Notes under the pieces: generated by a model
Told to the model about the DNA's origin: nothing
The model's database searches: none
The model's input: the letters and a program-made list of their open reading frames with translations, nothing else
Shown: positions 2,891 through 19,403 of the stretch, one piece after another
Position numbering within the stretch: position 1 is the first letter of the stretch
How the letters are laid out: each line of letters starts with the position of its first letter
Translations under genes and position numbers: made by a program
Assembly (NCBI GenBank): GCA_034722055.1
Contig: JAYENL010000295.1
Location: 1-19,403 of the forward strand
Source: Armatimonadota bacterium
Lineage (GTDB): Bacteria > Armatimonadota > Zipacnadia > Zipacnadales > UBA5352
DNA: 19,403 nt
Direction: 5' to 3'

Positions 2891-2910
2891 AGGCCCCAGC
2901 ATTCGCGAAC

Positions 2911-3152: not shown

Positions 3153-3428
3153 TGGAGGGGCCGCCGGGCGCGCAGCGCCCGGTGAGGCCTGTGACTGAGA
3201 CTTCGTAGAAGTCTCCCAGCGAATAGGCCTCAGGTTCCACCCCGGCCCGGCACGTGGCCCTACGCAGGGCCGAAAAGGGGCGCAGCGGGGGCGCCTGCGC
3301 TACTTAACCAGTGGGCCGGGGTGGAACCTGAGCGGTGCGTTCGGGAACGCACCGCTCACCGGAGACGCTACGCGTCTCTCCCCGCCCCCACAGCTCGCCC
3401 GCTCGCTTCGCTCGCGGCGGCCCCTCCA
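3153..3428. repeat. Nested inverted-repeat element (REP/REPIN/MITE-like or structured ncRNA)
   Basis: 14-bp outer IR 3153-3166/3415-3428; perfect 20-bp IR 3229-3248/3313-3332; 13-bp hairpin 3329-3358; 8-bp hairpins 3164-3182 and 3197-3215; 7-bp hairpin 3362-3378; 6-bp hairpins 3256-3271 and 3280-3300. The repeats are certain; their nature is not. Confidence 0.7.
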
Positions 3429-3580
3429 TGGTGGGCGCGCGTCTTGTCGGCACGCAGGAAGGTACGCGAACTTCTGCGACTCAGCACTGGCTCGCACAGG
3501 CTCTTCTCACTGTGTGGCATCCGTCCGCACTTCCCACAGATGGAGCGGCCATTGTGTGCCAGCCGGCGAGGTCCTGCACC

Positions 3581-4921
3581 CTATTCCTCTTCGCCACCCT
3601 GCACAGCTTCATCGCCAGCGGCTCTCCCTCTCCCACGCTGCTCGCCGCCGATGGCCTCCGCCAGTATGGCCTCCATATCGCGTGCCACAACGCCGGGCGA
3701 GTAGTGCTCGTCAACGGCCTCAGCGCCGGAGCCGGCCAGGCGGTCTGCCTCCCCGGCATCATCCATCAGCCCCGCCAGCGCCGCGGCAAGGGCCTCGGGC
3801 TCCTCGGGCTCAAAGAGCACGCCCCCGCCGGTCAGCTCCATCATCTCCGGGAAGATGCCCTCCTCCGGCACCACCACCGGCAGGCCCGCGGCCATCGCCT
3901 CCAGCGCCGTCGTGCCCAGCGCCTCCCGTTGGATGCTGAGCTGGCAGAAGGCGCTCAGCGAGTGCAGCAGGGCGATCTTCTCATCAAGCGGCACCTCGCC
4001 GAGGTGCTCGAAGCGATCCCCCAGGCCGGCCCGGCGCACGTCGCGCCGGATCTGCCCCCAGTAGCGCCTGCTCAGCACCTGGCCGGCGACGCGTAGCCGG
4101 AAGTCGCGGTCATCCTCGGCCAGCAGCCGGCAGGCCTCCACCAGCACGTGCAGGCCCTTGCGCGGCGTGATCACCGACAGGTAGCCGATGATGAACGGCT
4201 CCACCGCACGTGGCCGGTGGCGCCGGAGCCTCTCGGCGTCCACCGCCGAGCGCACAACCGCCATGCGCGCCGGCTCCACGTCCAGGAATCCCGCCATCTG
4301 CCCGGCGTATGCGTGGCCCGGAGCGACGAAGCGATCCACCGACCGCGCGTTGCGCCGGATCAGCTTCACGGCCTCCGACCGGTGCGGCTCGGGGATGCCC
4401 TCGATGAACCCGTCCTCCCCCTTCACCTCGCAGACGACCGCCACTGCCAGCCGGCGCTTGACCTCAGGCGCGATTCCCGACAGCATCGAGTTGGTGATGC
4501 TCACCACGTCCGGGCGCGCCTCACGCTCGAGAAAACCCACCAGGCGGTCGAGCTGGGCGCGCTGGCGTCCCTGGGCGCCGGCCAGCACCGACACGGTCAT
4601 GGGACCGAGCTGCGAGGCCGTGGTGCTGACGGCGAAGCGTGAGACGAGGCGCAGCAGGGCGGGATGGTCGAGGGCGCGCGTGATGAAGCGCGGCAGGCGC
4701 GCGAAGAGGCCGGAGAGCTGCTCCAGGCGGGCGTTGATGGCTCCCATGTGCACGTTCCTGACGGGCAGCACGTGGTCGCCCTCGATGCGCAGCGGCGTGT
4801 ACAGCGGCACGATCTGCACCTGGTGGCCGCGGGCCATCAGCGCGCGCGCCATGGCCGCGTCACGGGCGCACGCCCCGCAGTACATGCTCGCCGCGCCGGC
4901 GGCGAGGTGCACGATGCGCAT
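3581..4921 (-). CDS. Glycosyltransferase family 4 (GT-B, RfaB-like)
   Basis: 446 aa: MRIVHL start, GHQV, PDVV, GYLS.ITPRKGLHVLVEA, E-x7-E motif EALGTTALE, AMAAGLPVV. Start overlaps the upstream stop (TGATG). Confidence 0.92.
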   Translation of the reverse strand: MRIVHLAAGAASMYCGACARDAAMARALMARGHQVQIVPLYTPLRIEGDHVLPVRNVHMGAINARLEQLSGLFARLPRFITRALDHPALLRLVSRFAVSTTASQLGPMTVSVLAGAQGRQRAQLDRLVGFLEREARPDVVSITNSMLSGIAPEVKRRLAVAVVCEVKGEDGFIEGIPEPHRSEAVKLIRRNARSVDRFVAPGHAYAGQMAGFLDVEPARMAVVRSAVDAERLRRHRPRAVEPFIIGYLSVITPRKGLHVLVEACRLLAEDDRDFRLRVAGQVLSRRYWGQIRRDVRRAGLGDRFEHLGEVPLDEKIALLHSLSAFCQLSIQREALGTTALEAMAAGLPVVVPEEGIFPEMMELTGGGVLFEPEEPEALAAALAGLMDDAGEADRLAGSGAEAVDEHYSPGVVARDMEAILAEAIGGEQRGRGRAAGDEAVQGGEEE

Positions 4922-5841
4922 CAGCCCTCTTCCCCCACCATCGACTGCATCAGCGCCAGGGAGGCGATGCCGTAGTAGGTGTACTCCACGTCGGCGCCCG
5001 CGTCCGATGGCGAGGCGCCGAAGCCGCCCTGCGGCCGGGCCGCCGAGCGGATGAAGCGGGCCAGGGCAGGCAGGTCCAGCGCCGCCAGCGATCCCAGCAT
5101 GACCAGCGTCAGCAGGCCGGTGAAGCTGGAGAGCAGGTCGCCCTCCGGTGCGTCACGGTGGGCGCGGAGGCCCCCGTCGTCGGCTTGCATGCCGGCCACG
5201 AAGTCGGCCGCGCCCCGGGCCGCGTCGGCCTCCAGGCCGCCGCGTATCAGCAGCACCCCGGCCGCCGCGGCGGTGGCGTTCGTCTGGGCGCGGTCTGAGT
5301 CCCCACGCTCGACGTAGCCCCCGGAGGGCCGCTGCAGAGCCTGCAGCGCGGGCACGGGATCCGGCACGTCAGGCGCCACCTGCTCCAGCATCTGCACGCA
5401 GAGCGATCCCAGGAAAGTACCGTATGCGCTCAGCTCACCCGAGCAGGACGCGAACCCCCCGTCCGACAGCGACTGCCGCCGGACCACCTCCGCGAGATGG
5501 CCGCGGTCGATCCTGGGGACCAGCGAGCGCCGGCGGAGGAGCCGATCGATGCTGAGCATGCTGAAGGCCTCCAGCAGATTGTCGATGCCCGCAGGGATCT
5601 GTCCCAGGAAGCCCTTCGCCGTGGTCTCGAACGCCGCCGACTGCGGCGCGACCAGATCCAGCGCTCTGAGAGCGAAGTCCGTGTAGTAGAGGTCGGCCGG
5701 CCCCTCCCGGCCCGGGAAGCCGCCGCCGGGCGCCTCCTGAGCCTCGACCCATGCCGCCTGCGGGCCGATGAATCCCTCACCCAGACCGTGAGCGCCGCTG
5801 CGGAGGATGCCATCCACCAGGTCCAGGTAGCCCACTGTCAC
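4921..5841 (-). CDS. Prenyltransferase/squalene-oxidase repeat protein (single alpha/alpha barrel, GGTase-beta-like)
   Basis: About 306 aa from GTG 5841 (GTGA overlap with the upstream stop). Five QW-like repeats: QEAPGGGF, QSLSDGGF, QRPSGGY, QADDGGL, ARPQGGF. Also DLYYTDFALR and DVEYTYYGIASL. No DxDD. Confidence 0.85.
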   Translation of the reverse strand: MTVGYLDLVDGILRSGAHGLGEGFIGPQAAWVEAQEAPGGGFPGREGPADLYYTDFALRALDLVAPQSAAFETTAKGFLGQIPAGIDNLLEAFSMLSIDRLLRRRSLVPRIDRGHLAEVVRRQSLSDGGFASCSGELSAYGTFLGSLCVQMLEQVAPDVPDPVPALQALQRPSGGYVERGDSDRAQTNATAAAAGVLLIRGGLEADAARGAADFVAGMQADDGGLRAHRDAPEGDLLSSFTGLLTLVMLGSLAALDLPALARFIRSAARPQGGFGASPSDAGADVEYTYYGIASLALMQSMVGEEG

Positions 5842-7580
5842 GCCCCCGGCTGCGCGGCGGGACGCTCCCGGAGGATCGCCCTGACCAGGAAGCGCAGCAG
5901 CTCGCCGATAGCGTCCGGGCGGGCGTCGTCGGCCAGCTCCCCGCATCTCATCTTCAGGCGGTCCACCAGCACCCGGGCCTTCTCGAAGGCCCCCAACTCC
6001 TCGTAGAGGGCGCGGACCTCGGCCACGATGCGCTCGGCGCTGTCCTCCTCCGACACGCGTGAGAGGCGCTCCCAGCCGCCGGCCTGGATGGCGAAGGCGC
6101 GCAGGATCGTCGGTCGGCCGGCCAGCACATCCTGCCCCAGCGCGGCCTTGTTGCGGCGGTCCAGCCGCCAGTCCTCGAGGTCGTTGAGCACCTGGTAGGC
6201 CTCGCCGAGATAGTTTGAGAAGCGGCCCAGGAGCTCCTCATCCCGCTCCGCGCCCGAGGCCCTCAGCCCCGCATACAGCGCCACCTCGAAGGCCGGCGCG
6301 GTCTTCAGGGCGGCGATGGCGAGGGCATCGACGGGCCGGAGGGCCCCCGGCTGGCGGCGCATCCACTCCAGCTCCGCGCCCTGCCCGCGGCACAGGTCAA
6401 GCTGCGCGCGGGACAGCCGCCCCAGGATGTCAGCCACGGCCTCGGCGCCCAGCTCGCCCGAGCGCGCGGCGATCAGGCGGTAGCCCAGGCCCACCAGCCA
6501 GTCCCCGACGTTCACCGCCGGGCCGACGCCGTGCGAGCGATGCAGCGTGGGGCGGCCGTAGCGAAGCTCGTCGCCGTCGGCGATGTCATCGTGCACCAGG
6601 GAGGCCTTGTGCAGGGCCTCGATGGCCACGCCGAGGTCGCGCACGGGGTCGGTGACTAGCTCGGCAGTAGGCGCGTCGGGCGCCAGCGCCGCCACCCCAT
6701 GCGTCCCCAGCGCCCAGGCCGCCAGCGTCACGAACGGCCTCAGGCGCTTGCCTCCGCAGCGCAGCCAGTCGATTCCGACCGCCTCCACCGCGAGCATCGG
6801 GTCGGCGGTCTGGCCCTCAGCGTCGAGCTCCAGCGCCTGGGGTGTGACGTGAGGTCGCAGGATCGCGTCCATTGCCTCCCGCTCGAAGATGCGACGGGCC
6901 TCCCGCAGCAGCGGAACGGGGCTGCGCGTGGCCGACGAGGCGTCGGACCGGCTGGCCGCCAGGAGCTCCAGGATCAGCCCCGGCTCTGTCTCCGTCCGCT
7001 CGCAGCCGTCGCGGAGCAGGGGAATGGCCTGATTGGGCACGCCCAGGTCGGCGATGGGCTCGAAGGACTCGTCCAGCGACTCCAGGCAGGCCACGCCGAG
7101 AACGGCGTCGGCCTCGCCGTCAAGCACCTTCATGATCACCGAGGACGTGCCCTCGGCCACGACCACCTCGTAGCCCAAGTCTCGGGCGCGGGAGACCAGA
7201 TCGTGGATGACGCAGGCCCCGCAGCCGGCACAGTGCAGGCCGACGGAGTCGAATCGCCCCCTGCAGGCGTCGGGATCCCGCAGGCACTTCGGCAGCAGCA
7301 GCAACCGGCGGCTCGGCCGCACGGCCTCGAACTGCTCCCGCCAGAAGCCGTTGCTGACCGCCACCATGGCGAAGCCCAGGAACTCACGCGGCAGGTCCAG
7401 CCGCTGCAGCACCTGCTCGCCCAGCTCCGCGAGCGTGTCACGCGACGGCGCGGCGTCCCGTGGCACACCGCAGGCGACCTCGGCGGCGGCCTCACGTATG
7501 CGCCGCCGGACCTGGGGTGCCTGCGGGACGCGCTTGGTCTCGTCAGGCGCTGCCTGCGCGGGCACGGGCTGCCCGGTCAT
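5838..7580 (-). CDS. DUF116-like Cys-rich domain fused to a trans-polyprenyl diphosphate synthase
   Basis: 580 aa. N-terminal RRLLLLPKCLR..C...HCAGCGAC...GVACL...DGC (DUF116-like). C-terminal GGKRLRP, FARM HDDIAD..RYG.PTLH, GQGAEL, KTA, SARM YQVLNDLED. GAGGAG RBS. Confidence 0.88.
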   Translation of the reverse strand: MTGQPVPAQAAPDETKRVPQAPQVRRRIREAAAEVACGVPRDAAPSRDTLAELGEQVLQRLDLPREFLGFAMVAVSNGFWREQFEAVRPSRRLLLLPKCLRDPDACRGRFDSVGLHCAGCGACVIHDLVSRARDLGYEVVVAEGTSSVIMKVLDGEADAVLGVACLESLDESFEPIADLGVPNQAIPLLRDGCERTETEPGLILELLAASRSDASSATRSPVPLLREARRIFEREAMDAILRPHVTPQALELDAEGQTADPMLAVEAVGIDWLRCGGKRLRPFVTLAAWALGTHGVAALAPDAPTAELVTDPVRDLGVAIEALHKASLVHDDIADGDELRYGRPTLHRSHGVGPAVNVGDWLVGLGYRLIAARSGELGAEAVADILGRLSRAQLDLCRGQGAELEWMRRQPGALRPVDALAIAALKTAPAFEVALYAGLRASGAERDEELLGRFSNYLGEAYQVLNDLEDWRLDRRNKAALGQDVLAGRPTILRAFAIQAGGWERLSRVSEEDSAERIVAEVRALYEELGAFEKARVLVDRLKMRCGELADDARPDAIGELLRFLVRAILRERPAAQPGA

Positions 7581-7628
7581 CGTGCGATCTCCTCGGCGAT
7601 TGCCGGTGTGATCTGGTCTTCCGTCAGT

Positions 7629-9065
7629 CTACCCCGCATCCGGGCCGATGCACCACAGCTTCTCGTAGCCGCGCACATACATGCGGTCTCCGTCGAAGAC
7701 CGGCGTGCTGCGGACCGTGTCGCCGAGCTGATTGCGGGCGACCTCCACGAACTCGCCGCCGGGCTCGAAGATCACCGTGGTGCCGTTCTCGTGGGTGGCG
7801 AAGAGCAAATCACCCGCCAGCACGATGCTGGCGAAGACGTCGCCCTTCCCCATCTGCAGGTCCTGCTCGTAGACGATCTCGCCCGTCTCCGCGTCGAGGC
7901 AGGAGAGCACGTTGTGGCGGGTGACGGCGTAGATCAGCCCATCCTCGACGATTGGGGACGCGTAGTAGCGGTTCTTGTTGGGCTCGGCCTCCCACAGCAG
8001 CTCGGGCTCGAACGGGCTCTCCGCGGTCTCGGGCAGGCGGTAGGCGCGGCTGATGGCGTCGCCGCCCTGGTTGTCGATGTAGTAGAGCACGCCATCCTCC
8101 ACCATCGGCTCCGAGCCCCACTCCAGCTTGCCCAGGCCGCTGGCGATGATCTCACCGTCCTCGGCACGCACGACATCGCCCTTGCAGGTGAAGATGAGCG
8201 TCTCGCCGCCGATCTCCTGCACCCACGGCGTGCCCCAGCTCCAAGCGGCCTCCGGCTGCGCCCATATCTCCTCCCCGGTCGCGGGATCGAGCGCCCGGAG
8301 GTGGTTGATGTGCACTACCAGCTTCCCATCCGCCATCACGGGCGTGGTGGCGAGCCCGTAGTCGTGGGGGTGCTTCTCGATGAAGCGCCCCCACACGCGG
8401 TTGCCCTCCATGTCGTAGCAGGCGGCGATCCCGTTGCCGTAGATCACCCACACATGCTGGCCGTCGCTGATAGGGGTGGGCGTGCTGTAGCCATTGTAGC
8501 CGTGTGCGGGCGGGCGCACGTACCAGGTCTCAGCGAGGGGCTTGATCTGCGCCTGAAGCTGCTGCTGCTTCTGGCGCAGCTCTCTGAACTGCGCCTTCAG
8601 ATCCTCGTTGGACTGATCGTCCTGAAGCTGCTTCTTGACCTTGCGGAGCTCAGCGTTGACCTTTCCCAGCTCTCCCCGAAGCCGGTTGAACTCCTGTGTC
8701 TTGTCCTCAAGGTCCGCGACCTCATCGGGCGGCGCGACGTCCGCCGGCTCGTTGGAGGCCTGCCACCGGATCACACCGCTGCCCACGTCAACACACAGCA
8801 GCAGCGCCGGCTCCGAGCACGTGTAAAGCCTGTCGCCGACGATGATCGGCAGGGAGTTGGAGCTGCCCGGCATCTCCGTGGCCCACACCACGTTCTCGTC
8901 CGGCGACCAGGTGATCACCGGGCTCGCGTCAGGATACTCCCCCGTCCCGTCCGTGCGCCAGCCGACGTAGTCGTCGGCGGCCGCCGGCACCAGCGTCACT
9001 GCGACGAGAAGCCCCAGGAGCGCCTGGAGCGGGCCTGCAAGGCCAGAAAGCCATCCGTCCGCCAT
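7629..9065 (-). CDS. Secreted PQQ-like (BamB/AfsK-type) beta-propeller protein with a coiled-coil insertion
   Basis: Signal peptide ending VPAAA; WRTDGTG, W...NVVW.TEMPG..NS.PIIVGD, repeated xxPxxxDG and DxxTGExxW blades; helical K/Q/E/L-rich insert at about 8550-8720. ATG 9065 is best spaced from GGAGG; alternatives are 9071 and 9074. Confidence 0.85.
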   Translation of the reverse strand: MADGWLSGLAGPLQALLGLLVAVTLVPAAADDYVGWRTDGTGEYPDASPVITWSPDENVVWATEMPGSSNSLPIIVGDRLYTCSEPALLLCVDVGSGVIRWQASNEPADVAPPDEVADLEDKTQEFNRLRGELGKVNAELRKVKKQLQDDQSNEDLKAQFRELRQKQQQLQAQIKPLAETWYVRPPAHGYNGYSTPTPISDGQHVWVIYGNGIAACYDMEGNRVWGRFIEKHPHDYGLATTPVMADGKLVVHINHLRALDPATGEEIWAQPEAAWSWGTPWVQEIGGETLIFTCKGDVVRAEDGEIIASGLGKLEWGSEPMVEDGVLYYIDNQGGDAISRAYRLPETAESPFEPELLWEAEPNKNRYYASPIVEDGLIYAVTRHNVLSCLDAETGEIVYEQDLQMGKGDVFASIVLAGDLLFATHENGTTVIFEPGGEFVEVARNQLGDTVRSTPVFDGDRMYVRGYEKLWCIGPDAG

Positions 9066-9138
9066 CCCCATCATCCTCCCGCCATAGTGCGGGCGCCGTC
9101 TGGCGGCGCCCGGGCTGCATCAGGTCTACCACTTGCGC

Positions 9139-10953
9139 CTATTGACACCGGAGTGCTGACGAAGGTTCTGTGCCCGGCGGTCGCATCCGGGCCGAAAACG
9201 CCTCGCGCGCCCGTCCCAGCGCCTCCACCGTCCAGGCCACCGGGTAGAGGTCCTCAGCATACCACAGGGCGGCGAAGTAGAGGCCGATCGGCGTCGGCTC
9301 CGTCCAGGACCCATCCTTCACGCGTCGGAGCAGATACGTTACGCCCGTCTCCAGCGCCGGCTGCACATCGCGAGTAGCCGTGAAGCGGGTCAGCGCGCTG
9401 ACCGCCACCGCCGTCTCCTCCATGCTGCTGCGCACACCGGCGGCGCCGCCCCAGCCGCCATCCTCGTTCTGCGCTCGGAGCAGATACTGCACGCCACGCC
9501 GGGCGGCGTCATCATCAGCGCGGCCGCAGTCTCCCCAGGCCGCCAGCACCCGGGCGGTCCCGAAGACGGGGTTGCGCTGCCCCGGCGCCTCCTGGTTGCC
9601 GAACCACAGCGGCACCCAGGAGCCGTCCTCCCGCTGCGTGGCCTCCAGGTAGCGGAAGCCCTGCCGGCCGACCCTCCTGAGGTTGGCGCCGATCAGCCCT
9701 GCCAGCCTCGATTCCTCGCCGCTGTTGACCATCCCCAGCAGCGCATTGTGCGCTCGCAGGGCGTGCCCCGTGATGTCAGGCGAGCTCTGGTCGAAGGGCA
9801 GCCGGCCCCACCCCTGGCAGAAGGTGGGCCAGCCGCCATCGAGATTGTGGAGCCCGACGAGCCAGAAGCCGCCCGCCATCGCGGCCTGCTGCTCGCCCAT
9901 CGCGGCCATCAGGAGCACCGCGCCCGCGGTGTCGTCCGCGTCGGGCACTCCGCCCGAGAGGTGCGTCCAGGCCCATCCGCCCGGCGCCGCGCCAGTGAAG
10001 GGGTGCACCTCGGAGTGCTGCTGCTCCAGGAGCCAGCGGCGCGCGCTCCCGGCCAGCCCGGGTGGGATGCCGCCCGAGTGGCGCAGGGCCTGCAGGGCGT
10101 TGGTGGTGACCCACACGGAGAGGTTCGTGTCGATCGGCCAGCTTCCGTCCTCCCGCGCGGTGTCGCGCAGGAACTGCAGGGATCGCTGCACGACGCCGTC
10201 CTCCGCCCCCAGCACGGGAATCAGACTCATCGCCACGAAGCCCGTCAGCGGGGCGGCCTCCAGAAAGCCGCCGTGTTCGGGCTGCAGCTCCGGCAGCCTT
10301 CCCAGCGCCCGACCCAGTGTCAGCGAGCGCATGAGACGGGTGAGCGGGTTGAGCGGCGGGCTGTGACGGTGGATGACCGCCCCGACGGCGATCAATGCCG
10401 GCAGGGCGTAGCTGACCACCTGCAGCCGCAGAAGCCGGTGCCATGAGCGCGGCAGCGCGGCCAGCTCCACCGGCAGCGACGGGACCTGGCTCCAGGGCAC
10501 CAGCCCGGCCAGGGCACAGGCCGCCAGGACGGGAGCCGCGAAGGTCCGGTCCTCACCATAGCGCCGGGTCACGGCCCCGACGATCTCCTCCGGCCGCTCG
10601 CCCGCGACGTCCGCAACATGCTCCCGCGCCTGCGCAAGCGCCTGGCCCTCCGCATCCGCTACTGTGAGGGCGCAGATCGACAGCAGCGTGGCCGCGATGT
10701 TGGAGGGGCTGTCGGGCGTGTCGCCCCAGCCGCCGTCCGCATTCTGCGTCCGCTGCAGCCAGCGAACGGCGGCCTCAACCAGCTCTCGGTCCTCGTCCCG
10801 GCCGGCCATCCGCAAGGCCATGGCGGCCGTTGCGGTGGAGACCGCCGAGGATGACAGGCGCCCCTCCCACCACGATCCGCCGGCGCGCAGGGACAGGAGG
10901 TGCTCGCGCGTGGCGTCGATGGCGGCCTCCAGGCGGTCGGGGTCAATGCTCAT
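9139..10953 (-). CDS. Squalene-hopene cyclase-like class II terpene cyclase
   Basis: 604 aa from ATG 10953 (ATGA overlap). WEGRLSSS, QW repeats QNADGGWG, REDGSWP, HNLDGGWP, QREDGSW, QNEDGGWG; GGWAW followed by the catalytic PDADDTA (DxDD); C-terminal LWY.EDLYP. Confidence 0.88.
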   Translation of the reverse strand: MSIDPDRLEAAIDATREHLLSLRAGGSWWEGRLSSSAVSTATAAMALRMAGRDEDRELVEAAVRWLQRTQNADGGWGDTPDSPSNIAATLLSICALTVADAEGQALAQAREHVADVAGERPEEIVGAVTRRYGEDRTFAAPVLAACALAGLVPWSQVPSLPVELAALPRSWHRLLRLQVVSYALPALIAVGAVIHRHSPPLNPLTRLMRSLTLGRALGRLPELQPEHGGFLEAAPLTGFVAMSLIPVLGAEDGVVQRSLQFLRDTAREDGSWPIDTNLSVWVTTNALQALRHSGGIPPGLAGSARRWLLEQQHSEVHPFTGAAPGGWAWTHLSGGVPDADDTAGAVLLMAAMGEQQAAMAGGFWLVGLHNLDGGWPTFCQGWGRLPFDQSSPDITGHALRAHNALLGMVNSGEESRLAGLIGANLRRVGRQGFRYLEATQREDGSWVPLWFGNQEAPGQRNPVFGTARVLAAWGDCGRADDDAARRGVQYLLRAQNEDGGWGGAAGVRSSMEETAVAVSALTRFTATRDVQPALETGVTYLLRRVKDGSWTEPTPIGLYFAALWYAEDLYPVAWTVEALGRAREAFSARMRPPGTEPSSALRCQ

Positions 10954-12440
10954 CGCGACGCCCGCCAGGCGTGCCAGGCGAAGAGGGCCTTCCACCGCAC
11001 GACCTGCCCCCGGCCCAGAAGCTGCAGCAGGAGCCTGCGGCCCACGGGGACGCCGGCGGCACGCTGGTTGTCCCAGAACATGCGAGGGACCTCGCGGAAG
11101 CTCACGTCGTAGCAGCGCTCGATGAGCCGCCAGTGCAGGGGCGCCAGGTCGCGGCGCGTGGGCGTCGGGCTTCCGTCAATGGGCGCATACAGCACCGGGA
11201 AGATCATCAACGGCTCGTGCGCGATCTCCTCGACCCACTCCAGGTTGCGCCGCACGTGCTCGGGACGCTCCCCGGGCATGCGCATCATGAGGCTGGCCAT
11301 GGGCATGAAGCCGGCCGCGATCAGCCGCCGAAGCTGATGGGCGCAGAACTCGCCCCACTGAGCCGGCTCCACGTCGCCGAGCTTGGCGGCGCCGCTGCGC
11401 GCCAGCAGCTCCCCGTCCGCCGACTCCACGCCGAGGTTGATCCACGGATGCGTGCAGCCGGTGTCGCCGACCATGAGCTGTCGGACCTCGCGCAGCTCGT
11501 CGTCGGAGTAGCCGCCGACGCTGATGACATTGGCGTGATCGGTCTGGATCAGCCCCACGCCCTTCACCCGGCGCATTCGCCGCAGAAGATCGATGAGGGC
11601 CTGGGGATCGACATTCCGGGCGGAGCCGCCGTAGCGCAGCATGTCCTCGCTGATGGTGCTCACGCCGGTGAGGCCCGCCGCCAGGTTCCTCTGCAGGTCC
11701 GCCAGAATTGTCTCCTCCGGGAGGTGCCGCATGGGCACCGGGCCCATGGTGCAGTAGTCGCAGCCCATCCCGCAGCCGCGCGACAGCTCCACCACGCCCA
11801 TGGTGGCCGGCCCGCGGATGGCAGGGATGTCCGCCGACCCCACGCCTCGGCCCTCCATGACGGCGGGAAGCTCCTCGCGGTCGGTGATGCTGCGGAACAG
11901 CTCCGACACGTTCCCCTCCACCTGGCCGGTCACGAGGTGGTCAACGCCCAGCTCCCGGCGCAGGCCCTGGTCGGCCACGAGCTGCCAGGCTCCGGGGCCG
12001 CCAATTACGACCCGAGCCTGAGGCGCCTGCTGCCTCAAGCGCGCAATGCGCGCCATCAGCTCGCGCACCAGCCGCCGGGCGTAGATCTCTCCGCCGGCGA
12101 TGGCGGTCATGGTCGTGGAGCTCATGCCCAGCCCGCAGGCCTCGCCGGCGCTGACCGCGATGATGCGCGTGTCCGGGCCGACGTGCTCCGAGAGGCGGGT
12201 GGGATGCACCACCACCACATCATCATCCGCGAAGCCGTCCGAGAGCAGGGACGCCTCCACGCGCCGGAGGCCCATGGGCGCCAGGCAGGTCTGCGGCGTG
12301 GGGGCCAGCAGGCGGTCGAGGATCGGCCGCGGCGTGGTTGTGGTCTGGCTGGCCGCCAGCATCCCGGCGAACAGCGTGCGGTGATCCGCCATCAGGATGC
12401 GGTCCGCGGTGAGTACGATGGGCGTGCCACGACGCCTCAC
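10950..12440 (-). CDS. B12-binding-domain / radical SAM protein
   Basis: 496 aa from GTG 12440 (GTGA overlap with the ferredoxin stop). VELSRGCGMGCDYC (CxxxCxxC), N-terminal B12-binding-like region (APMGLRRVEASL...RVVIGGPGAW...GQVEG), and LGVESAD. Confidence 0.9.
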   Translation of the reverse strand: MRRRGTPIVLTADRILMADHRTLFAGMLAASQTTTTPRPILDRLLAPTPQTCLAPMGLRRVEASLLSDGFADDDVVVVHPTRLSEHVGPDTRIIAVSAGEACGLGMSSTTMTAIAGGEIYARRLVRELMARIARLRQQAPQARVVIGGPGAWQLVADQGLRRELGVDHLVTGQVEGNVSELFRSITDREELPAVMEGRGVGSADIPAIRGPATMGVVELSRGCGMGCDYCTMGPVPMRHLPEETILADLQRNLAAGLTGVSTISEDMLRYGGSARNVDPQALIDLLRRMRRVKGVGLIQTDHANVISVGGYSDDELREVRQLMVGDTGCTHPWINLGVESADGELLARSGAAKLGDVEPAQWGEFCAHQLRRLIAAGFMPMASLMMRMPGERPEHVRRNLEWVEEIAHEPLMIFPVLYAPIDGSPTPTRRDLAPLHWRLIERCYDVSFREVPRMFWDNQRAAGVPVGRRLLLQLLGRGQVVRWKALFAWHAWRASR

Positions 12441-13303
12441 CGGCCGCCACCCCCCGGTCCCCGCTGGCCGGTGGCGCGGTCCAGGGCGTCGATGAGCGCG
12501 TCGATCTCGGCGTGGACCGTGGACTCCTCCTCGCACTCGCCGGCGGCCTCTGTAGCGCGGCCACACTCCTCACAGATGACCGCGCCGGCGCGGGCGAACG
12601 CGGCGTCCTCCGCACCGGGGACCTCGCCGCACACCGGGCATCGGCGGCCGGTGCGCACGTAGAACATCCGCCGCGCCGCAGCGTCGGGCTCCATGCATGT
12701 GCCCGGCGCGCCGGCGATGGCCGGCTCGTCGCACAGCGGAAACATAATGGCCCCGTGGGGGCAGATGCGGGCGCAGGCGGGGCAGCCAGGCTTACACAGG
12801 TCCGGGCTCGTCGCCACCACCCGAGCCGCCTTGTCCCTCTCGTAGACGCCGAAGAGGCAGAACTGCAGACAGTGCCCGCAGCTCGTGCATTGCGATCGGT
12901 CCAGGACCGGATACCACCGTGCAGGGGTCTCGTCCTCGATCTCGCGGAGCCGCCCCTCACCCTCGGCCGGGCCCAGGGCCTCGCTGATGGCAGAAAGCGC
13001 CTCGCCCGCTGATTCCGCCGCGCCGAGGTCGATAGCGCAGCGAAGCTCACCCTGCACGCCGCGGTCGCGCAGCACGCACTCTGCCGGCCGGGGATGCAGC
13101 CAGGAGGCGACCGCCAGCGGACCCTCGAGGGAGCGTAGCTCCGGCCAGACGGCGCTGTGCTCAGTCAGATGATAGAGGTGCGGAATCAGGATCACGTCAC
13201 GGCCGGCGCTGCGGCACCGTGACGCGATGTGGTCCTCCAGGACCCTCCGGTCGGGATGCTCTCCGCGATGCCGGGACACGATCACCGTCGGCCTCTCCGC
13301 CAC
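12437..13303 (-). CDS. 4Fe-4S dicluster ferredoxin-domain protein with an extra CxxC..CxxC module
   Basis: 288 aa: WYPVLDRSQCTSCGHCLQFCLFGVY, CKPGCPACARICPHGAIMFP, then CPVCG...CEECG and an acidic C-terminal helix EIDALIDALD. Confidence 0.85.
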   Translation of the reverse strand: MAERPTVIVSRHRGEHPDRRVLEDHIASRCRSAGRDVILIPHLYHLTEHSAVWPELRSLEGPLAVASWLHPRPAECVLRDRGVQGELRCAIDLGAAESAGEALSAISEALGPAEGEGRLREIEDETPARWYPVLDRSQCTSCGHCLQFCLFGVYERDKAARVVATSPDLCKPGCPACARICPHGAIMFPLCDEPAIAGAPGTCMEPDAAARRMFYVRTGRRCPVCGEVPGAEDAAFARAGAVICEECGRATEAAGECEEESTVHAEIDALIDALDRATGQRGPGGGGR

Positions 13304-13375
13304 AACCTGTCACCCCACCGATCTCCTCACACGCGATAGCTGCCACGCCGCGATCGCCGGCGCGACGGTGCACAC

Positions 13376-13404
13376 ACAATACCGCGAGCGGACGCTTTTG
13401 TCCA
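13376..13404 (-). promoter_or_regulatory. sigma70-type promoter of the minus-strand terpenoid operon
   Basis: On the minus strand: TGGACA (13404-13399), 17 nt spacer, TATTGT (13381-13376), about 70 nt upstream of GTG 13303. Confidence 0.6.
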
Positions 13405-13558
13405 GCCACCCCTCGCACGTCGGTCCGTGCGACGCCGAGCGCGTCGTCATACCTCACCACGCCGATGAACTATGCGCACAGCCATCGCGTCACCATGTGT
13501 ACTGGACCGGCTCTGCGCGAGGGCGCCGGCTTCCCAGCATGGAAAGGGTCGGTGGGCC

Positions 13559-13693
13559 CGTACGGAGGTCGGGCGTCCCTGCGCCCGACGCGGGCCGAGA
13601 GGCCCGCATTCGTTGGGATGCCTTCGCAGGCCCGGTCGAACGAGAGTCGCGCTTCGCGCGACGGCTGGCCTAGGCAGGCCGGCGCTCCGTACG
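13559..13693. repeat. Multi-branched palindromic element between the divergent promoters
   Basis: Closing IR CGTACGGAG (13559-13567) / CTCCGTACG (13685-13693) encloses hairpins 13568-13589 (8 bp), 13590-13607 (7 bp, GAGA loop), 13646-13662 (7 bp) and 13664-13683 (8 bp with one G-U). Confidence 0.65.
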
Positions 13694-13817
13694 ACGCTGA
13701 GCCAACGTCAACCGGGCTGTGGCCGCGGAAAGAGCCGCCAAGGCGCCTCCGGGCGCCCTTGGCCGGCGTTCTGCCGACACTGCGGATGCGCGCCCCAGGA
13801 CGGCTGCAGCCTGCAGC

Positions 13818-13846
13818 TTGACGGGCTGACGCGCCCGGAATACTAT
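13818..13846 (+). promoter_or_regulatory. sigma70-type promoter of the plus-strand Fe-S/propeller operon
   Basis: TTGACG (13818-13823), 17 nt spacer, TACTAT (13841-13846); GAGG RBS and ATG 13886 follow. Confidence 0.75.
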
Positions 13847-13885
13847 GTCGCACAACCGCTCCCATCTCGGGCCCCCGAGGAATCC

Positions 13886-15493
13886 ATGGGGAACAGCACT
13901 AGCCAGGACAAGCGTCTGCCCCATCGCCGCGTCCCGTCCACGGTCGAGGACGAGCAAGACGGGGTCGAGGCTCCGTCAGGGACGGGGCCAGCGGAGAGCC
14001 CGAAGAGCAGTGGAACTGCACACACGCTGGCGATCGCAATCCCCGCAGTGCTCGGCTTCATCGGCGCAGTCTTGATCGGCCTGTGGCTGCTCAGCGACAG
14101 ACAGCCGGTGGGGGTGGAGCCCCGGACGCCGCAGGAGCACACGCCGGCGGCCAGAGCGCAGGGGCAGCCCGCCCCCAGCCCGGCGGCGGCCACCGACCAG
14201 CCGGCGGGCGGAGAGGGCGGCACCGGTCAAGCTGCCGGCGCGCAGCCCGGTCAGCGCCGGGCTCAGGCGAGCACCACGCAGGCGTCCGGCCCGGCTCCGG
14301 CTACCACGCAGGGCGGCGGGAGGTGGCCGTGGTTCCGGGGCGTCGGCCGCGACGCCATCGCTGACGAGGAGGTGGGGCTGGCACGAAGCTGGCCGGAGGG
14401 CGGCCCGCGCAAGCTCTGGTCAAAAAAGATGCTGGGGCCCGGCCACGCCGGCGCCGCCATCCTGGGCGGTCGCGTTTATGTACTCGACTACGACCTCGGG
14501 GCCCGTGCCGACGTGCTGCGCTGCATGTCGCTGCAGGACGGCAGCGACATCTGGAAGCAGTCCTACGCCGTGCAGATCAAGGACAACCACGGCATCTCTC
14601 GCACCGTGCCCGCCGTGACCGAGCAGTTCGTGGTCTCCCTCGGCCCCATGGGGCACGTCACCTGCGCGCGCGCTGACAGCGGCGAGATCATCTGGCAGAT
14701 CGACCTGAAGCAGAAGTACGGCACCAAGATCCCGGGATGGTACGCCGGCCAGTGCCCGCTGATCGATGACGGGAAGGCTATCGTGGCACCGGGCGGCCAG
14801 GCCCTCATGATCGCAGTGGATTGCGCCTCCGGCCAGGTGGTGTGGCAGACGCCCAATCCGCGGGGGTGGCAGATGACGCACACATCCGTCATGCCGTGCA
14901 CTCTGGGCGGCCGGAAGGTCTACGTCTACACCGCCAGCGGCGGCATCGTGGGCGTGTCCCCCAGCGACGGCTCCCTGCTGTGGGAACAGCCGGGGTGGAG
15001 CGTCAACACGGCCAACGTGCCCAGCCCACTTCCGGTGGGTAATGACCGCCTGTTCATCACCGGCGGCTATGGCGCCGGCAGCATGCTGCTCAGCCTCGCA
15101 GGCGGCAGTCCCAGCGAGGTCTGGCGGATCCCGCAGAAGGTCTTCGGCTCCCATCAGCACACGCCTATCTACTACCGGGATCACATCTTCGGCGTCAGCA
15201 TGGACCAGCAGCTCGTGTGCCTGAACCTGCAGGGCGAGCGGGTGTGGAGCAGTGGCCACACCAACACCCTCGGCATCGGGCCCTACATCATTGCCGAGGG
15301 CCTCATCTACGCCCTCAACGGCAACGACGGGACCCTGGTGATGGCGGAGGCCAGCACCTCCGGGTACAAGGAGCTGGCGCGGGCGAAGGTCCTGCCGGGA
15401 ACGAACGCCTGGGGGCCGATGGCCCTGGCCGGCGGCAAGCTCATCTGCCGCGACCGGACCACGATGGTCTGTCTGGATGTGAAGAACCCCTGA
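13886..15493 (+). CDS. Membrane-anchored PQQ-like beta-propeller protein
   Basis: 535 aa from ATG 13886: one TM helix (LAIAIPAVLGFIGAVLIGLWLL), A/P/G/Q linker, WPWFRG, W..GGPRKLW, multiple PQQ-type blades, and a C-terminal WGPMALAGGKLICRD...CLD. The ORF-track start at 13472 is an over-extension. Confidence 0.88.
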   Translation: MGNSTSQDKRLPHRRVPSTVEDEQDGVEAPSGTGPAESPKSSGTAHTLAIAIPAVLGFIGAVLIGLWLLSDRQPVGVEPRTPQEHTPAARAQGQPAPSPAAATDQPAGGEGGTGQAAGAQPGQRRAQASTTQASGPAPATTQGGGRWPWFRGVGRDAIADEEVGLARSWPEGGPRKLWSKKMLGPGHAGAAILGGRVYVLDYDLGARADVLRCMSLQDGSDIWKQSYAVQIKDNHGISRTVPAVTEQFVVSLGPMGHVTCARADSGEIIWQIDLKQKYGTKIPGWYAGQCPLIDDGKAIVAPGGQALMIAVDCASGQVVWQTPNPRGWQMTHTSVMPCTLGGRKVYVYTASGGIVGVSPSDGSLLWEQPGWSVNTANVPSPLPVGNDRLFITGGYGAGSMLLSLAGGSPSEVWRIPQKVFGSHQHTPIYYRDHIFGVSMDQQLVCLNLQGERVWSSGHTNTLGIGPYIIAEGLIYALNGNDGTLVMAEASTSGYKELARAKVLPGTNAWGPMALAGGKLICRDRTTMVCLDVKNP

Positions 15494-16494
15494 TGGCCCC
15501 CGGTCGGCACGAGGGCATGCTGTTCACCGCCGCGGCCGTCGTGCTGGCCGCGCTGCTCGGCGGCTGCGAGGCCCGCGAGCAGATCGCGCGCGATACGGTG
15601 GCCGTGAAGGCAGCGGACACGGCTGCGGAGATCGAGGCCGGACAGGCCGCCCAGAAGTGGGTGGCCTGGCGCCAGGTGGGGAGGATCGACACCGGCCTGT
15701 CGAAGCCGCGGGCCATCGCCGTGGGCACGGACGGGAACATCTATGCGGGAGGCGAGGGCGCCATCCGCTGCTTCAGTCCCGAGGGCGAGGTGCAGTGGGA
15801 GCTTCCGGTTGACGGGGAGGTGTGGGCGCTGGAGGTGGCGGACGCGGGGACCATGTTCGTGGCCTACATCGAGAGCGTGGCCGTCCTCGACCCCTCCGGA
15901 CGGGAGCACCTGAGAATCACGCCGCAGGATCGCAGGACGTGGATCACGTCGCTGGCGGTCAGTGATCATGCTATTTTCGTCGCAGACGCTGGGGCGCGGA
16001 AGGTCTGGCGCTACGACCGGCAGGGAACTCCCACGGGCGAGATCGGGAGCGAGGACCCCCAGCGCGGCATCCCGTCACTGGCCACCCCCAGCCCGCACCT
16101 GGACATCGCGCTCTCCGGGGACGCCATCCTCGTCGCCAACCCGGGGCGACACTCCGTGCAGCGTCACGCAGTGGCGGACGGCGCGCTGCTGGGACGCTGG
16201 GGGGACTACGGCCCGGACGTTGAGGGCTTCAGCGGCTGCTGCAATCCCACGGACCTGGCCGTTCTGCCGGACGGCCGGGTGGTGACCAGCGAGAAGGGCA
16301 GCCCGCGCGTGAAGCTCTACTCGCCCGACGGCGAGCTGCTCTCGGTGGTGGCGCCGCCGTCGGAGTTCCGGGACGACACCGCGGGCATCGACCTGGCGGC
16401 GGACTCGTCGGGGCGAGTCCTGACGCTTGACCCGGTGCGCGGGGAGATCCGCATCTACGAGGAGATCGCGGGGTCGGAGGAGGAGACGGGATGA
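15493..16494 (+). CDS. NHL-repeat/6-bladed beta-propeller lipoprotein with a vicinal Cys-Cys motif
   Basis: ATG 15493 (TGATG overlap; alternative 15517). Lipobox LLGG-C; PRAIAVGTDGNIY, IFVADAG.RKV, VANPGRH, FSGCCNPTDLAVLPDGRVVTSEKG. Confidence 0.8.
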   Translation: MAPGRHEGMLFTAAAVVLAALLGGCEAREQIARDTVAVKAADTAAEIEAGQAAQKWVAWRQVGRIDTGLSKPRAIAVGTDGNIYAGGEGAIRCFSPEGEVQWELPVDGEVWALEVADAGTMFVAYIESVAVLDPSGREHLRITPQDRRTWITSLAVSDHAIFVADAGARKVWRYDRQGTPTGEIGSEDPQRGIPSLATPSPHLDIALSGDAILVANPGRHSVQRHAVADGALLGRWGDYGPDVEGFSGCCNPTDLAVLPDGRVVTSEKGSPRVKLYSPDGELLSVVAPPSEFRDDTAGIDLAADSSGRVLTLDPVRGEIRIYEEIAGSEEETG

Positions 16495-16733
16495 AGAGCG
16501 CTCGACGGGAGTTCCTCAGGAGTATCCTGCGAGGCGGGGTGGGCGCGCTGCTGGTGGGGGGCACTGGGTGGCTGGCGCTGCGCTCCGGCGAGCCCTGCTG
16601 GTCGGATGGCGGCTGCCGACGGTGCCCGGAGCTGCGGGGCTGCGAGCTGCCTGAGGCGCGCATCGCACGCATGCAGCGGGGCATCCCGGAACCGGCTGAC
16701 CAGCCCCCGACCGGCGAGGGGCCCGCGAGCTGA
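16491..16733 (+). CDS. Small protein with a twin-arginine-like N-terminus/TM segment and four Cys
   Basis: 80 aa: SARREFLR, a hydrophobic helix, then C-x5-C-x2-C-x5-C. ATGA overlap with the upstream stop and GAGGAG RBS. Confidence 0.75.
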   Translation: MKSARREFLRSILRGGVGALLVGGTGWLALRSGEPCWSDGGCRRCPELRGCELPEARIARMQRGIPEPADQPPTGEGPAS

Positions 16734-16738
16734 GCCCA

Positions 16739-17545
16739 ATGGCTGATGAGCGAGACGAGCGGATGAACAGGCGGAAGTTCCTGACCGAGGCCGCGCGCCT
16801 GCTCGGGATCGCGGGCGCCGCCGGCACGCTCGGCGGCGTGGCCATGGCCGGTCAACGGGACAATATGGTGTGGCAGATCGACCCGGAGAAGTGCATCGCC
16901 TGCGGCAACTGCGCCACGGCCTGTGTGCTGACGCCCTCGGCTGCCAAGTGCGTGCACGATGTGGCCCTCTGCGGCTTCTGCGACCTGTGCTTCGGGTTCT
17001 TCGCCGAGCAGCGGCCCGGCGATACTGAGGCCCCTGAGAACCAGCGCTGCCCTACCGGCGCCATCATCCGCAACTTCGTCGAGGAGCCCTACTACGAGTA
17101 CATTATCGACGAGCCCAAGTGCATCGGCTGCGCCACGTGCGTGGAGGGCTGCATGCAGTACGGCAACGGCTCGCTGATCATGCAGGTGCGCCACGACCGC
17201 TGCGTCAACTGCAACGAGTGCGCCATCGCCGCACAGTGCCCGGCGGACGCCTTCGTGCGCGTCCCGGCCGATGAGCCCTACCTGCTCAAGAGCGAGAAGC
17301 TCGAGAAACAGGCGGAGGAGGCCGAGGAGGAGCCGGCTGCGTCTCCCCGCCCACCGGAGCCATCGCCCCAGCAGCCAACCTCAGAGGGGCCGCCCGAGAT
17401 GCCCCGGGAGGCGGCGGGCACACCGGAGGCCGCGCAGCCCCCGGAGGTGGAGCCGGACGCTCCCCAGCCGCCGGCGCCGCAGCCCGAGCCGGCTCCGGAG
17501 GAGGCGGACTCCCTGGAGGAGCTTATCGGCGGGGATCTGCGATGA
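16739..17545 (+). CDS. Tat-signal polyferredoxin (multi 4Fe-4S) with a Pro/Glu-rich tail
   Basis: NRRKFL Tat motif; CIACGNCATAC, CGFCDLC...CPTGAI, CIGCATCVEGC, CVNCNEC....CPADAF; disordered P/E tail. Start is 16739 or the downstream in-frame ATG at 16763. Confidence 0.88.
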   Translation: MADERDERMNRRKFLTEAARLLGIAGAAGTLGGVAMAGQRDNMVWQIDPEKCIACGNCATACVLTPSAAKCVHDVALCGFCDLCFGFFAEQRPGDTEAPENQRCPTGAIIRNFVEEPYYEYIIDEPKCIGCATCVEGCMQYGNGSLIMQVRHDRCVNCNECAIAAQCPADAFVRVPADEPYLLKSEKLEKQAEEAEEEPAASPRPPEPSPQQPTSEGPPEMPREAAGTPEAAQPPEVEPDAPQPPAPQPEPAPEEADSLEELIGGDLR

Positions 17546-18843
17546 CGCGCCGCGCCATCGCCCTTGCCGTCATCGTGGCCCTGCTCGTCCCCGCGCTGGT
17601 GCTGGCGGCGGAGCGCTTCCCACCGCCCGAGTTCAGCTTCGACTACCAGTTCCCGGACGTTCGCACGCCGCGGCCGCGGCCTCCCATCTTCGAGTGGATC
17701 GATGTGGCCGTGCTGGCGGCGGCGCTGGGGCTGGCGGCCTGGCTGGCGCTGAGGCGCCGCTCGCGCCGGGAGCTGTTCGTGCTGGCGGTCTTCGGACTGC
17801 TCTACTTTGGCTTCTATCGCCAGGGCTGCGTCTGCGCCATCGGGGCGATCCAGAACCTGGCGCTGGCCCTGGGCACCGACTACGTGCTGCCCATCAGCGT
17901 GGGCGCCTTCCTGCTGCTGCCGCTGCTGTTCGCGCTGGTCTTCGGGCGCGTCTTCTGCGCCGGCGTCTGCCCGCTGGGCGCAGTTCAGGAGATCGTGCTG
18001 CTGAGGCCGGTGCGCGTGCCCGTGTGGCTGGAGCGGTCCCTGGGGCTGTTCCCCTTCATTTACCTGGGCTTCGCGGTGCTCTTCGCGTGGACGGACACCG
18101 GCTTCCTCATCTGCCGCTACGACCCGTACATTGCGTTCTTCCGCCTCGGCGGGCTGACCCACATCGTCATCGCCAGCGTGGCGCTGCTGGTGGTGGCGGT
18201 GTTCATCGGCCGGCCCTACTGCCGCTTCGTCTGCCCCCTGGCGGCCCTGTTCCGGCTGGTGGCGCCGCTGTCGGTGTGGCACGTGCGGCTCGGTGGCGAG
18301 GAGTGCATCAACTGCCACCTGTGCGCCGACGCCTGTCCCTACAACGCCATCCGGCCGCCGACTGCCGAGGAGCGCTCGCATCCGCCCTCGACGGGCCGTT
18401 GGACGCTGGCCGCGATCCTCGTCGCCCTCCCGCTGCTTATCGCCGGTGGCGCATGGCTGGGCCACGGGGCCAGCGACTACCTCGCGGGCTACAACTCCAG
18501 GGTGGCGCTGGCCGCCCGCGTCTACGCCGAGCAGCAGGAGGAGGTAGAGGGCACCACAGAGGAGTCCGAAGCGTTCTATGCACAGGGCAAGGAGGTGACA
18601 GGACTCTATCAGGAGGCCGCCGAAATCAGGAGCAGGTTCGAGGTGGGGAGCGCCGTGCTGGGCGCCTGGATCGGGCTGGTAATCGGCGCCCGACTTGTGG
18701 CCGTGTCCCTGCGACGAACGCGAGAGCACTATGAGGTCGATCCGGCCGCGTGCGTCTCCTGCGGGCGGTGCTTCTCATCGTGCCCCATCGAGAAGGCGCG
18801 CAGGAGCGGCAGACCATTGCAGGCGGCTGAGAGCACACAATGA
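17542..18843 (+). CDS. Integral-membrane 4Fe-4S protein of the NapH/MauN/NosR/RdxA type
   Basis: 433 aa with several TM helices; GCVCAIG, GRVFCAGVCPLG and RPYCRFVCPL (two CxxxCP motifs); ferredoxin motifs CINCHLCADACP and CVSCGRCFSSCP. ATGA overlap. Confidence 0.88.
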   Translation: MTRRAIALAVIVALLVPALVLAAERFPPPEFSFDYQFPDVRTPRPRPPIFEWIDVAVLAAALGLAAWLALRRRSRRELFVLAVFGLLYFGFYRQGCVCAIGAIQNLALALGTDYVLPISVGAFLLLPLLFALVFGRVFCAGVCPLGAVQEIVLLRPVRVPVWLERSLGLFPFIYLGFAVLFAWTDTGFLICRYDPYIAFFRLGGLTHIVIASVALLVVAVFIGRPYCRFVCPLAALFRLVAPLSVWHVRLGGEECINCHLCADACPYNAIRPPTAEERSHPPSTGRWTLAAILVALPLLIAGGAWLGHGASDYLAGYNSRVALAARVYAEQQEEVEGTTEESEAFYAQGKEVTGLYQEAAEIRSRFEVGSAVLGAWIGLVIGARLVAVSLRRTREHYEVDPAACVSCGRCFSSCPIEKARRSGRPLQAAESTQ

Positions 18844-19403
18844 GCCACGACGCCATGGCGGGCGAAAGCCAGCAGGTTCGTGCAGATGAGGAGCGGGGCG
18901 AGGAGCGCCGGCCGCAGGATCTGCGCTACCTCATCGCCACCCGGGTGGCGATCGTGGCGGGGGTCTTCTGCGCCATCGTCTTCGCCCTCATGCTGGCGAA
19001 CCTCATCCGCGCTCGCAGCGCCGATCCCACCGCCCCCGCCAGGATCGAGCAGCTCAAGGCCAAGGCGAATCGGGATGGCTGGACCCCGGAGCTCAGGGAG
19101 CAGTTCAGCACCCTCGACCAGCAGCTTCGCCGGGAGTACTTCAGGAGCCGACGCTTCGCCATCCAGGGCATCTTCATGCTGCTGGGCGGCGTAGTGGTGC
19201 TGCTGATCTCCCTGCAGTTCGCGGCCCAGTGGGCCGATGAGGGTCCCTTTCCCGACGCCAGCTCGGTGGAACAGCCCATCCTGGCCTCGGCGGTGAATCG
19301 CCGGGCGGTCGTGGCCATGGGGCTGCTGATGGGCGGGCTGCTCGCGGCCCTCGCGGTGCTGGCGCGCCATGATGCTGTCGCGGCGTACGCCAGGCAGGCA
19401 GAG
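18840..19403 (+). CDS. Membrane protein, N-terminal part, running off the window end (possibly the anchor of another PQQ-like propeller)
   Basis: ATG 18840 overlaps the upstream TGA (ATGA). The frame is open for 188 codons to the window end: MSHDAMAGES...VAIVAGVFCAIVFALMLANL...FMLLGGVVVLLISL...VVAMGLLMGGLLAALAVLA (three hydrophobic helices). Missing from the ORF track because there is no stop in the window. Confidence 0.85.
   Translation, partial: MSHDAMAGESQQVRADEERGEERRPQDLRYLIATRVAIVAGVFCAIVFALMLANLIRARSADPTAPARIEQLKAKANRDGWTPELREQFSTLDQQLRREYFRSRRFAIQGIFMLLGGVVVLLISLQFAAQWADEGPFPDASSVEQPILASAVNRRAVVAMGLLMGGLLAALAVLARHDAVAAYARQAE

Follow-up and report, generated by a model that had tools for sequence, protein, structure and literature searches.

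A Bacterial Clade of Predicted Grs-Family Radical SAM Enzymes Encoded beside an SHC-like Terpene Cyclase in Armatimonadota

The ring synthases GrsA (Saci_1585, WP_011278400.1) and GrsB (Saci_0240, WP_011277158.1) of Sulfolobus acidocaldarius act on glycerol dialkyl glycerol tetraethers (GDGTs); they are known from genetics only, with a proposed mechanism, and characterised members of the Grs family of radical S-adenosylmethionine (SAM) enzymes are described as closing cyclopentane rings on isoprenoid chains (PMC13459092; 10.1101/2025.10.20.683597). Bacterial homologues from Acidobacteria (10.1101/2022.08.15.504015) and from Planctomycetota and Cloacimonadota (PMC11868695) have been put forward as candidate cyclases of branched GDGTs (brGDGTs). 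A clade of class II terpene cyclases resembling squalene-hopene cyclase (SHC), with a polyprenyl synthase encoded nearby, is described as lacking an assigned function in print (PMC7306690; PMC12324236). Both lines meet in the stretch of DNA analysed here, contig JAYENL010000295.1 (positions 1 to 19,403, the window) of an Armatimonadota bacterium (GCA_034722055.1), where the gene 12440-10950 on the minus strand encodes a radical SAM protein of 496 amino acids (aa) with a GTG start. Judged by sequence comparison, this protein belongs to the Grs family, in which it is part of a distinct bacterial clade, and in the genomes surveyed its gene invariably accompanies that of an SHC-like cyclase.

The 496-aa reading frame contains the motifs IVLTADRILM, APMGLRRVEASL, GGPGAWQL and ELSRGCGMGCDYC, all of which had been pointed out in an initial annotation of this DNA. 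The GTG start (12440-12438) overlaps the TGA of the upstream ferredoxin gene (12439-12437), and the ATG of the downstream cyclase gene (10953-10951) overlaps the TGA of the radical SAM gene (10952-10950); the four-base overlaps at both ends agree with the translational coupling read there earlier. The protein is not the product of a chance frame, because 600 homologues were found at E<=1e-10 (among 7998 scored candidates) and the best 120, own record excluded, align over the full length with 49-73% identity; the opposite strand also carries a frame of 610 aa (10830-12662), and it is the minus-strand protein that the homologues keep. Where close homologues carry a name, it is from Armatimonadota, WS1, Planctomycetes or Kiritimatiellota, which points to an armatimonad or a near relative as the likely host. 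Two tiers emerged from a search of 1.84 billion representatives, one at about 41-53% and the other at about 24-35% identity, and the named members of the second are Bathyarchaeia, Archaeoglobaceae, Thermoprotei and Methanopyrus. The DNA itself occurs in four sequencing runs, which are brine metagenomes of one study, and the plasmids searched included no carrier of the protein.

Pfam searches placed Radical_SAM (E 1.1e-4) and, weakly, a B12-binding domain (E 6.5e-3) on the protein, each below its curated cut-off, and no NCBIfam family reached its cut-off (top score TIGR04013, 53/251 bits). A sequence search of the PDB returned only RimO (E 0.003-0.008), from which no identity was taken; nor were the automatic Atlas names MtaB and MiaB adopted.

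Reference sequences were typed from published data. GrsA of S. acidocaldarius is WP_011278400.1 (PMC11868695); deletion of grsA grsB abolishes the transcripts of WP_011278400.1 and WP_011277158.1, and the third B12-dependent radical SAM gene in the transcript table of that strain is WP_011278593.1 (PMC12107092). The sequence P0550, named by its source as S. acidocaldarius Q4J8I0/AAY80898.1, was taken as GrsA because Elp3 of this species is AAY80401.1 (10.1101/2022.08.15.504015) and the offset between Elp3 (row 953) and GrsA (row 1450) is 497 both in the table rows and in the accessions; P0552 (505 aa) falls into the same 90% cluster as P0550. A second Sulfolobaceae paralogue type resembles the Q4JC22 peptides, which are raised in the complemented strain (PMC12107092), and was labelled GrsB-type by inference; the GrsB side of the comparisons consists of such GrsB-type sequences and not of S. 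acidocaldarius GrsB itself. A third type (L171-L176) holds a Q4J7Z0 peptide, raised in the deletion strain like the WP_011278593.1 transcript (PMC12107092), and is called Cgm-type. The peptides of GrsA/B are non-zero in the deletion strain (PMC12107092), so that these data served solely to type paralogues. A published S. acidocaldarius quantitative PCR primer had no match in the genome contigs searched. A Nezhaarchaeota record (L043:5553-6785) has a Cgm/Gmm-type gene next to one of GrsA type, like the published gmm-grs clusters.

Across five Sulfolobaceae genomes, the radical SAM protein matched two paralogue types with E values of 1e-31 to 8e-43, and everything else at 9e-6 or above. The alignment with S. 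acidocaldarius GrsA (P0552) covers 456 columns at 23% identity (E 5e-41). In a phmmer comparison with 18 references, the protein scored 136-170 bits against four GrsB-type sequences and 116-126 bits against two GrsA sequences, 5.9-8.6 bits against four Cgm-type proteins (short local matches only), 1.9-12 bits against four other B12-dependent radical SAM proteins of the same genome and 2-9 bits against MtaB types. In the reverse direction, a profile of the bacterial clade gave 229-260 bits on Grs sequences and at most 37 bits on the remaining references. An alignment of 24 bacterial and 81 archaeal-tier sequences contains 36 positions conserved across both sets, several of them missing from Cgm; R55, E58, W148, D262, Y266, H298 and K349 (numbered from 12428) are among the 36 and are not found in Cgm. 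The only invariant cysteines of the family are the three of the CX3CX2C radical SAM cluster motif (11751..11774, minus strand), and the tryptophan of the GGPGAWQ loop (11982..12002, minus strand), in the predicted cobalamin-binding domain, is common to the GrsA and GrsB types and absent from the Cgm-type methylase. The likeness to GrsA and GrsB thus comprises full-length homology, the N-terminal signature, the GGPGxWQ loop and CX3CX2C, with no conserved extra cysteines, and the earlier suggestion that this signature belongs to the archaeal Grs family is borne out by this comparison and by the tree described below.

The same numbers mark the distance between the clade and its archaeal relatives. 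Identity to GrsA is 22.6-29.4% in 133/133 proteins of the clade, and none of them reaches 30%. A published screen asks for at least 20% identity, at least 70% coverage and E<=1e-40 to both GrsA and GrsB; against GrsA, the protein reaches the identity and the coverage, and its E value is 5e-41 in the pairwise comparison and 2.6e-34 at a database size of 1e6, at which 57/133 clade proteins pass the E<=1e-40 screen. In the phylogeny made with IQ-TREE (46 rows, 504 columns, LG+G4), the 42 Grs-family rows, including GrsA/B, are split from four methylase-type rows with 100/100 support, subject to a warning about the long outgroup branch. The 11 rows of the bacterial clade group together at 100/99 and are sister to neither GrsA nor GrsB, the base of the family being unresolved; P0138 and P0147 are successive sister branches to this clade. 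A FastTree phylogeny of 114 rows also gave the bacterial clade full support, the two outgroups joining at different places. These comparisons indicate a clade of its own and not orthology to GrsA or GrsB.

AlphaFold modelling (pLDDT 95.8, pTM 0.93) predicted an alpha/beta N-terminal domain, followed by a barrel and then by long C-terminal helices, which are also described for Grs (PMC13459092). The predicted architecture, with a B12-type Rossmann domain, a partial barrel carrying CX3CX2C, a C-terminal helix and no auxiliary cluster, corresponds to that of Grs proteins. The best solved matches of the model are MgmA, MiaB, TsrM, CysS, OxsB and TokK, at template modelling scores of about 0.5; such fold matches show the architecture predicted for the protein, not its reaction. 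A prediction of the complex of the radical SAM protein with the ferredoxin scored 0.00 and gave no answer. The label 'Gms-type', which had been attached to the protein together with the Grs name, has to be dropped: Gms forms C-C bonds on isoprenoid chains by radical chemistry, the same chemistry as is proposed below, but published accounts make it a SPASM/Twitch enzyme that has two auxiliary clusters and lacks a B12 domain (PMC11214058; PMC13459092), and this description sets it apart from a protein that has a predicted B12 domain and no SPASM/Twitch features.

The gene directly downstream (9139..10953, minus strand) encodes a class II terpene cyclase of 604 aa whose DADDT aligns to the DVDDT of SHC and which stays below the cut-offs for SHC, oxidosqualene cyclase (OSC) and tetrahymanol synthase. 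With two domains, an intact DxDD, scores below the SHC/OSC cut-offs and a polyprenyl synthase nearby, it has the features of the published SHC-like clade, with which it was compared by these features. The synthase gene (5838..7580, minus strand) encodes a DUF116 domain (CxxCxxC) joined to a trans-isoprenyl diphosphate synthase that has the motifs DDxxD and NDxxD; the gene directly upstream of the radical SAM gene (12437..13303, minus strand) encodes a 288-aa protein with a 2x[4Fe-4S] ferredoxin domain. The gene order ferredoxin, radical SAM enzyme, cyclase is conserved among relatives: the cyclase gene adjoins the radical SAM gene in 19/19 loci and the ferredoxin gene does so in 18/19, the remaining locus ending inside the gene. 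DxDD is intact in the cyclase at each of the 19 loci where it was read, and the first aspartate motif of the synthase is likewise conserved. Nine metagenome loci have the ferredoxin upstream in every case and the cyclase in six, the other three ending in or just past the radical SAM gene. The operon is split in some genomes (L209/L210 of G098, L193 of G171), and G098 retains the radical SAM enzyme, the cyclase and the synthase on three contigs with unrelated neighbours.

A survey of the phylum covered 401 genomes, 300 of them at least 90% complete, with the best 3-4 candidates per genome scored. The cyclase was found in 54 genomes, the Grs-type enzyme in 46 and an unrelated radical SAM enzyme of 396 aa, orthologous among its carriers, in eight; no genome belongs to both sets of carriers, and the two sets add up to precisely the 54 cyclase genomes; neither enzyme was found among the candidates scored in the 347 cyclase-negative genomes. 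The radical SAM slot beside the SHC-like cyclase is thus always filled. The setting in a bacterial isoprenoid operon, claimed earlier, is a stronger association than one sequence could reveal, since the cyclase is present in 46/46 carriers. At the three loci that were read, the alternative enzyme is flanked by the same ferredoxin and by the DUF116-synthase. It has no B12 domain, its top scores are on SPASM/Twitch models, and it resembles a family of SPASM proteins of 460-490 aa (33% identity, E 2e-64). A full-score COX1 match (475 bits or more) was found in 4/5 alternative-type and 1/10 Grs-type genomes, and any COX1 match in 4/5 and 6/10, respectively; this amounts to no more than a trend towards an aerobe/anaerobe divide between the enzyme types. 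In three alternative-type operons (L184:896-6444, L185, L208), genes for a cysteine desulfurase and a CobW-like GTPase precede that of the ferredoxin.

The substrate question was addressed in a smaller sample of 19 cyclase genomes (16 Grs-type and three alternative-type). A tetraether synthase exceeded the cut-off in 0/19 genomes searched, and so in 0/16 of those of Grs type (best Grs-type score 241/450 bits), in which the clade differs from GrsA/GrsB, and PcrB/GGGP synthase had no match in genome G000 (93% complete); by these searches the hosts do not present themselves as GDGT makers, as the host of a GDGT ring synthase in the strict sense would be. Squalene/phytoene synthase is present in 4/16 Grs-type and 3/3 alternative-type genomes, and the DUF116-synthase in 18/19 cyclase genomes, being missing in one that is 80% complete. 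This distribution makes the prenyl product of the operon itself the likely substrate, in preference to GDGT or squalene.

The combination of Grs-family membership with characterised members that close cyclopentane rings underlies the reading that we incline towards, namely that the protein makes an oxidative C-C bond in the polyprenyl lipid predicted for the operon, closing a ring or a cross-link at the cost of two hydrogens overall; by analogy with those members, this appears somewhat probable. In such a pathway, the DUF116-prenyl synthase would build a head-to-tail polyprenyl chain and the ferredoxin, as the electron donor inferred from gene order alone, would reduce the SAM cluster. Two successive hydrogen abstractions would follow, the first substrate radical being held by cobalamin, as in the proposal for GrsA/B (PMC13459092), and C-C closure might give either a ring inside one chain or a link between two chains. 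The DxDD cyclase would cyclise the chain by protonation before or after this step, a glycosyltransferase would add a sugar and, in relatives, an ABC/FtsX system might export the lipid.

Several points weigh against this reading. Identity to GrsA is low throughout the clade, which is sister to neither ring synthase, and its catalytic role is drawn from comparison. Methylases and methylthiotransferases head the solved structural matches, with no Grs structure among the library matches. B12-dependent radical SAM enzymes switch reaction easily, homologues of Gmm either methylating or desaturating (10.1101/2025.10.20.683597), and GrsA/B act on saturated chains, whereas unsaturation would be expected of a polyprenyl product. 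Because the three alternative-type cyclases tested fall into one clade, the swap may be a single replacement event among kin that are not independent, and the two radical SAM types need not share one chemistry.

A different reaction for the same slot would be C-methylation of the cyclic terpenoid by a cobalamin-dependent enzyme doing the job of HpnP/HpnR from another family. Methylation is a common reaction of B12-dependent radical SAM enzymes; the protein shares the B12-binding domain and radical SAM barrel with HpnR, HpnP, Gmm, Cgm, Pgm and Ted, its B12-type fold has the solved structures from MgmA to TokK listed above as nearest neighbours, and it is encoded beside a class II cyclase. It has no match, however, to the HpnR (TIGR04367) or HpnJ (TIGR03471) models at E<=0.01, while a Cgm-type control scores 163 bits on the first and 142 on the second and the HpnR model matches five other genes of this genome; HpnR/HpnJ-type identity is rejected on these scores. 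Scores against four Cgm-type proteins do not exceed 8.6 bits, and by this comparison the protein lies outside the Gmm/Cgm/Pgm/Ted group (about 31-40% identity to Gmm or Cgm), in keeping with the earlier view that it is no HpnR-type methylase. Hopanoid methylases are patchy in distribution, but this slot is filled in 54/54 cyclase genomes, and the occupant in eight of them lacks a B12 domain. If both enzymes perform one step, this speaks against an optional methylation that depends on B12. Methylation is therefore regarded as improbable.

A smaller chance is given to oxygen-free desaturation of the operon lipid, in which the enzyme, like Ted, would halt at the olefin. One proposed Grs mechanism runs via an olefin (PMC13459092), and Ted demonstrates that B12-dependent radical SAM enzymes can desaturate isoprenoid chains; Ted, however, is a homologue of Gmm (31% identity), and the Gmm/Cgm type, compared here through Cgm-type sequences, is not close to the present protein. 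A mass shift of -2 Da is expected of a new ring and is also produced by Ted (10.1101/2025.10.20.683597), and by itself it cannot distinguish ring closure from desaturation.

It also seems quite unlikely that the enzyme adds a 5'-deoxyadenosyl radical to the cyclised terpene to begin a polar side chain in the manner of HpnH. Such a step would suit a slot that is always occupied next to a cyclase and a glycosyltransferase, and HpnH matches the alternative enzyme weakly (36.8 bits against a cut-off of 225), although that enzyme is much closer to the SPASM family. In hopanoid synthesis, the radical SAM enzyme HpnH acts on the product of squalene-hopene cyclase. The literature covered does not report this reaction for the Grs family, the reaction has no need of a cobalamin domain, and a Pfam scan of the window proteins revealed no nucleosidase gene. 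Ring closure in membrane-spanning fatty-acid/ether lipids of the brGDGT type, with an incidental position in the operon, is very unlikely: it could appeal to the proposed function of the bacterial homologues named at the outset and to two putatively Mss-like SPASM proteins of 460-490 aa in G000, but the radical SAM gene occurs in 0/347 cyclase-negative genomes and always with the cyclase in its 46 carriers (adjacent in 15/16), no tetraether synthase exceeds the cut-off in the 16 carriers searched, and the SPASM family is present in only 4/16 of them.

This SPASM family, tentatively regarded as Mss-like, returned no NCBIfam model at cut-off. One G000 member (485 aa) stands beside a conventional B12-dependent radical SAM gene (L207:4810-7629, contig C159), the second being on contig C281; in L202:17-2697 and L203, a 423-aa SPASM radical SAM gene lies directly upstream of a 462-aa family member, an arrangement with a tentative likeness to published gms-mss pairs. 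Members of this 460-aa family (38-39% identity) occur on two enterobacterial plasmids (L212:1567-2868, L213:1501-2880), where the plasmid matches are named just 'radical SAM protein', and the 80 archaeal loci searched contained no Gms-like neighbour. Four motifs of the family do not appear in the supplement text of PMC13159169.

The remaining minus-strand genes of the operon region encode a PQQ/BamB-like beta-propeller protein (7629..9074), found at this position in only some relatives, a single alpha-alpha toroid protein resembling prenyltransferase beta subunits (4921..5841; its GTG start overlaps the upstream stop, and the frame is open from 5946) and a GT4 glycosyltransferase (3581..4921) predicted to add the polar head. 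A divergent cluster on the plus strand (13886..19403) encodes a beta-propeller protein, an NHL protein, a small cysteine-containing protein, a ferredoxin and a membrane 4Fe-4S protein (NapH-like), two of its genes having twin-arginine-like N-termini; it accompanies the Grs-type operon in conserved synteny in most of the long loci and was not seen beside the three alternative-type loci. Further plus-strand genes encode a MATE-family transporter (408-1859) and two tandem near-identical cold-shock proteins (2159-2395, a Pfam CSD match, and 2654-2890, read by eye). In relatives, the operon is followed by genes for an ATP-binding cassette (ABC) ATPase and a 1128-aa double FtsX/MacB permease (L024:16291-20499; similarly L023, L028 and L029); this pair, encoded outside the present window, is a candidate exporter.

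Bacterial Grs homologues and the SHC-like clade were each known already, and it is the obligatory link between them that is new in the literature covered. The published bacterial Grs homologues resemble the present clade in being Grs-family proteins of bacteria; those of the PMC11868695 screen, which demands at least 30% identity to GrsA, probably belong to other clades, because 0/133 proteins of the present clade reach that cut-off. No paper linking bacterial Grs homologues with the SHC-like clade was found in literature that included few subscription papers and neither the supplementary hit lists of PMC11868695 and PMC11214058 nor closed bioRxiv supplements, which may list clade members. The word 'radical' is absent from the supplement text of PMC7306690, and 'radical SAM' from the main texts of PMC7306690 and PMC12324236; in the loci described here, the radical SAM slot beside the cyclase is both obligatory and swappable.

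With its separate bacterial position, its 23-29% identity to GrsA and its terpene cyclase operon with a dedicated ferredoxin, the clade ties the Grs family to a different, probably operon-made substrate, and it falls under one published identity cut-off. A bacterial grs match need not mean a tetraether producer. The product of the SHC-like cyclase is a question raised in two papers; the radical SAM enzyme and the ferredoxin belong in its reconstitution, where either of the two radical SAM enzymes can serve as a cross-check. In the boldest form of this proposal, which is less likely than not, the clade would supply the first enzyme of the Grs family to act on something other than GDGT, and the SHC-like cyclases would gain their product.

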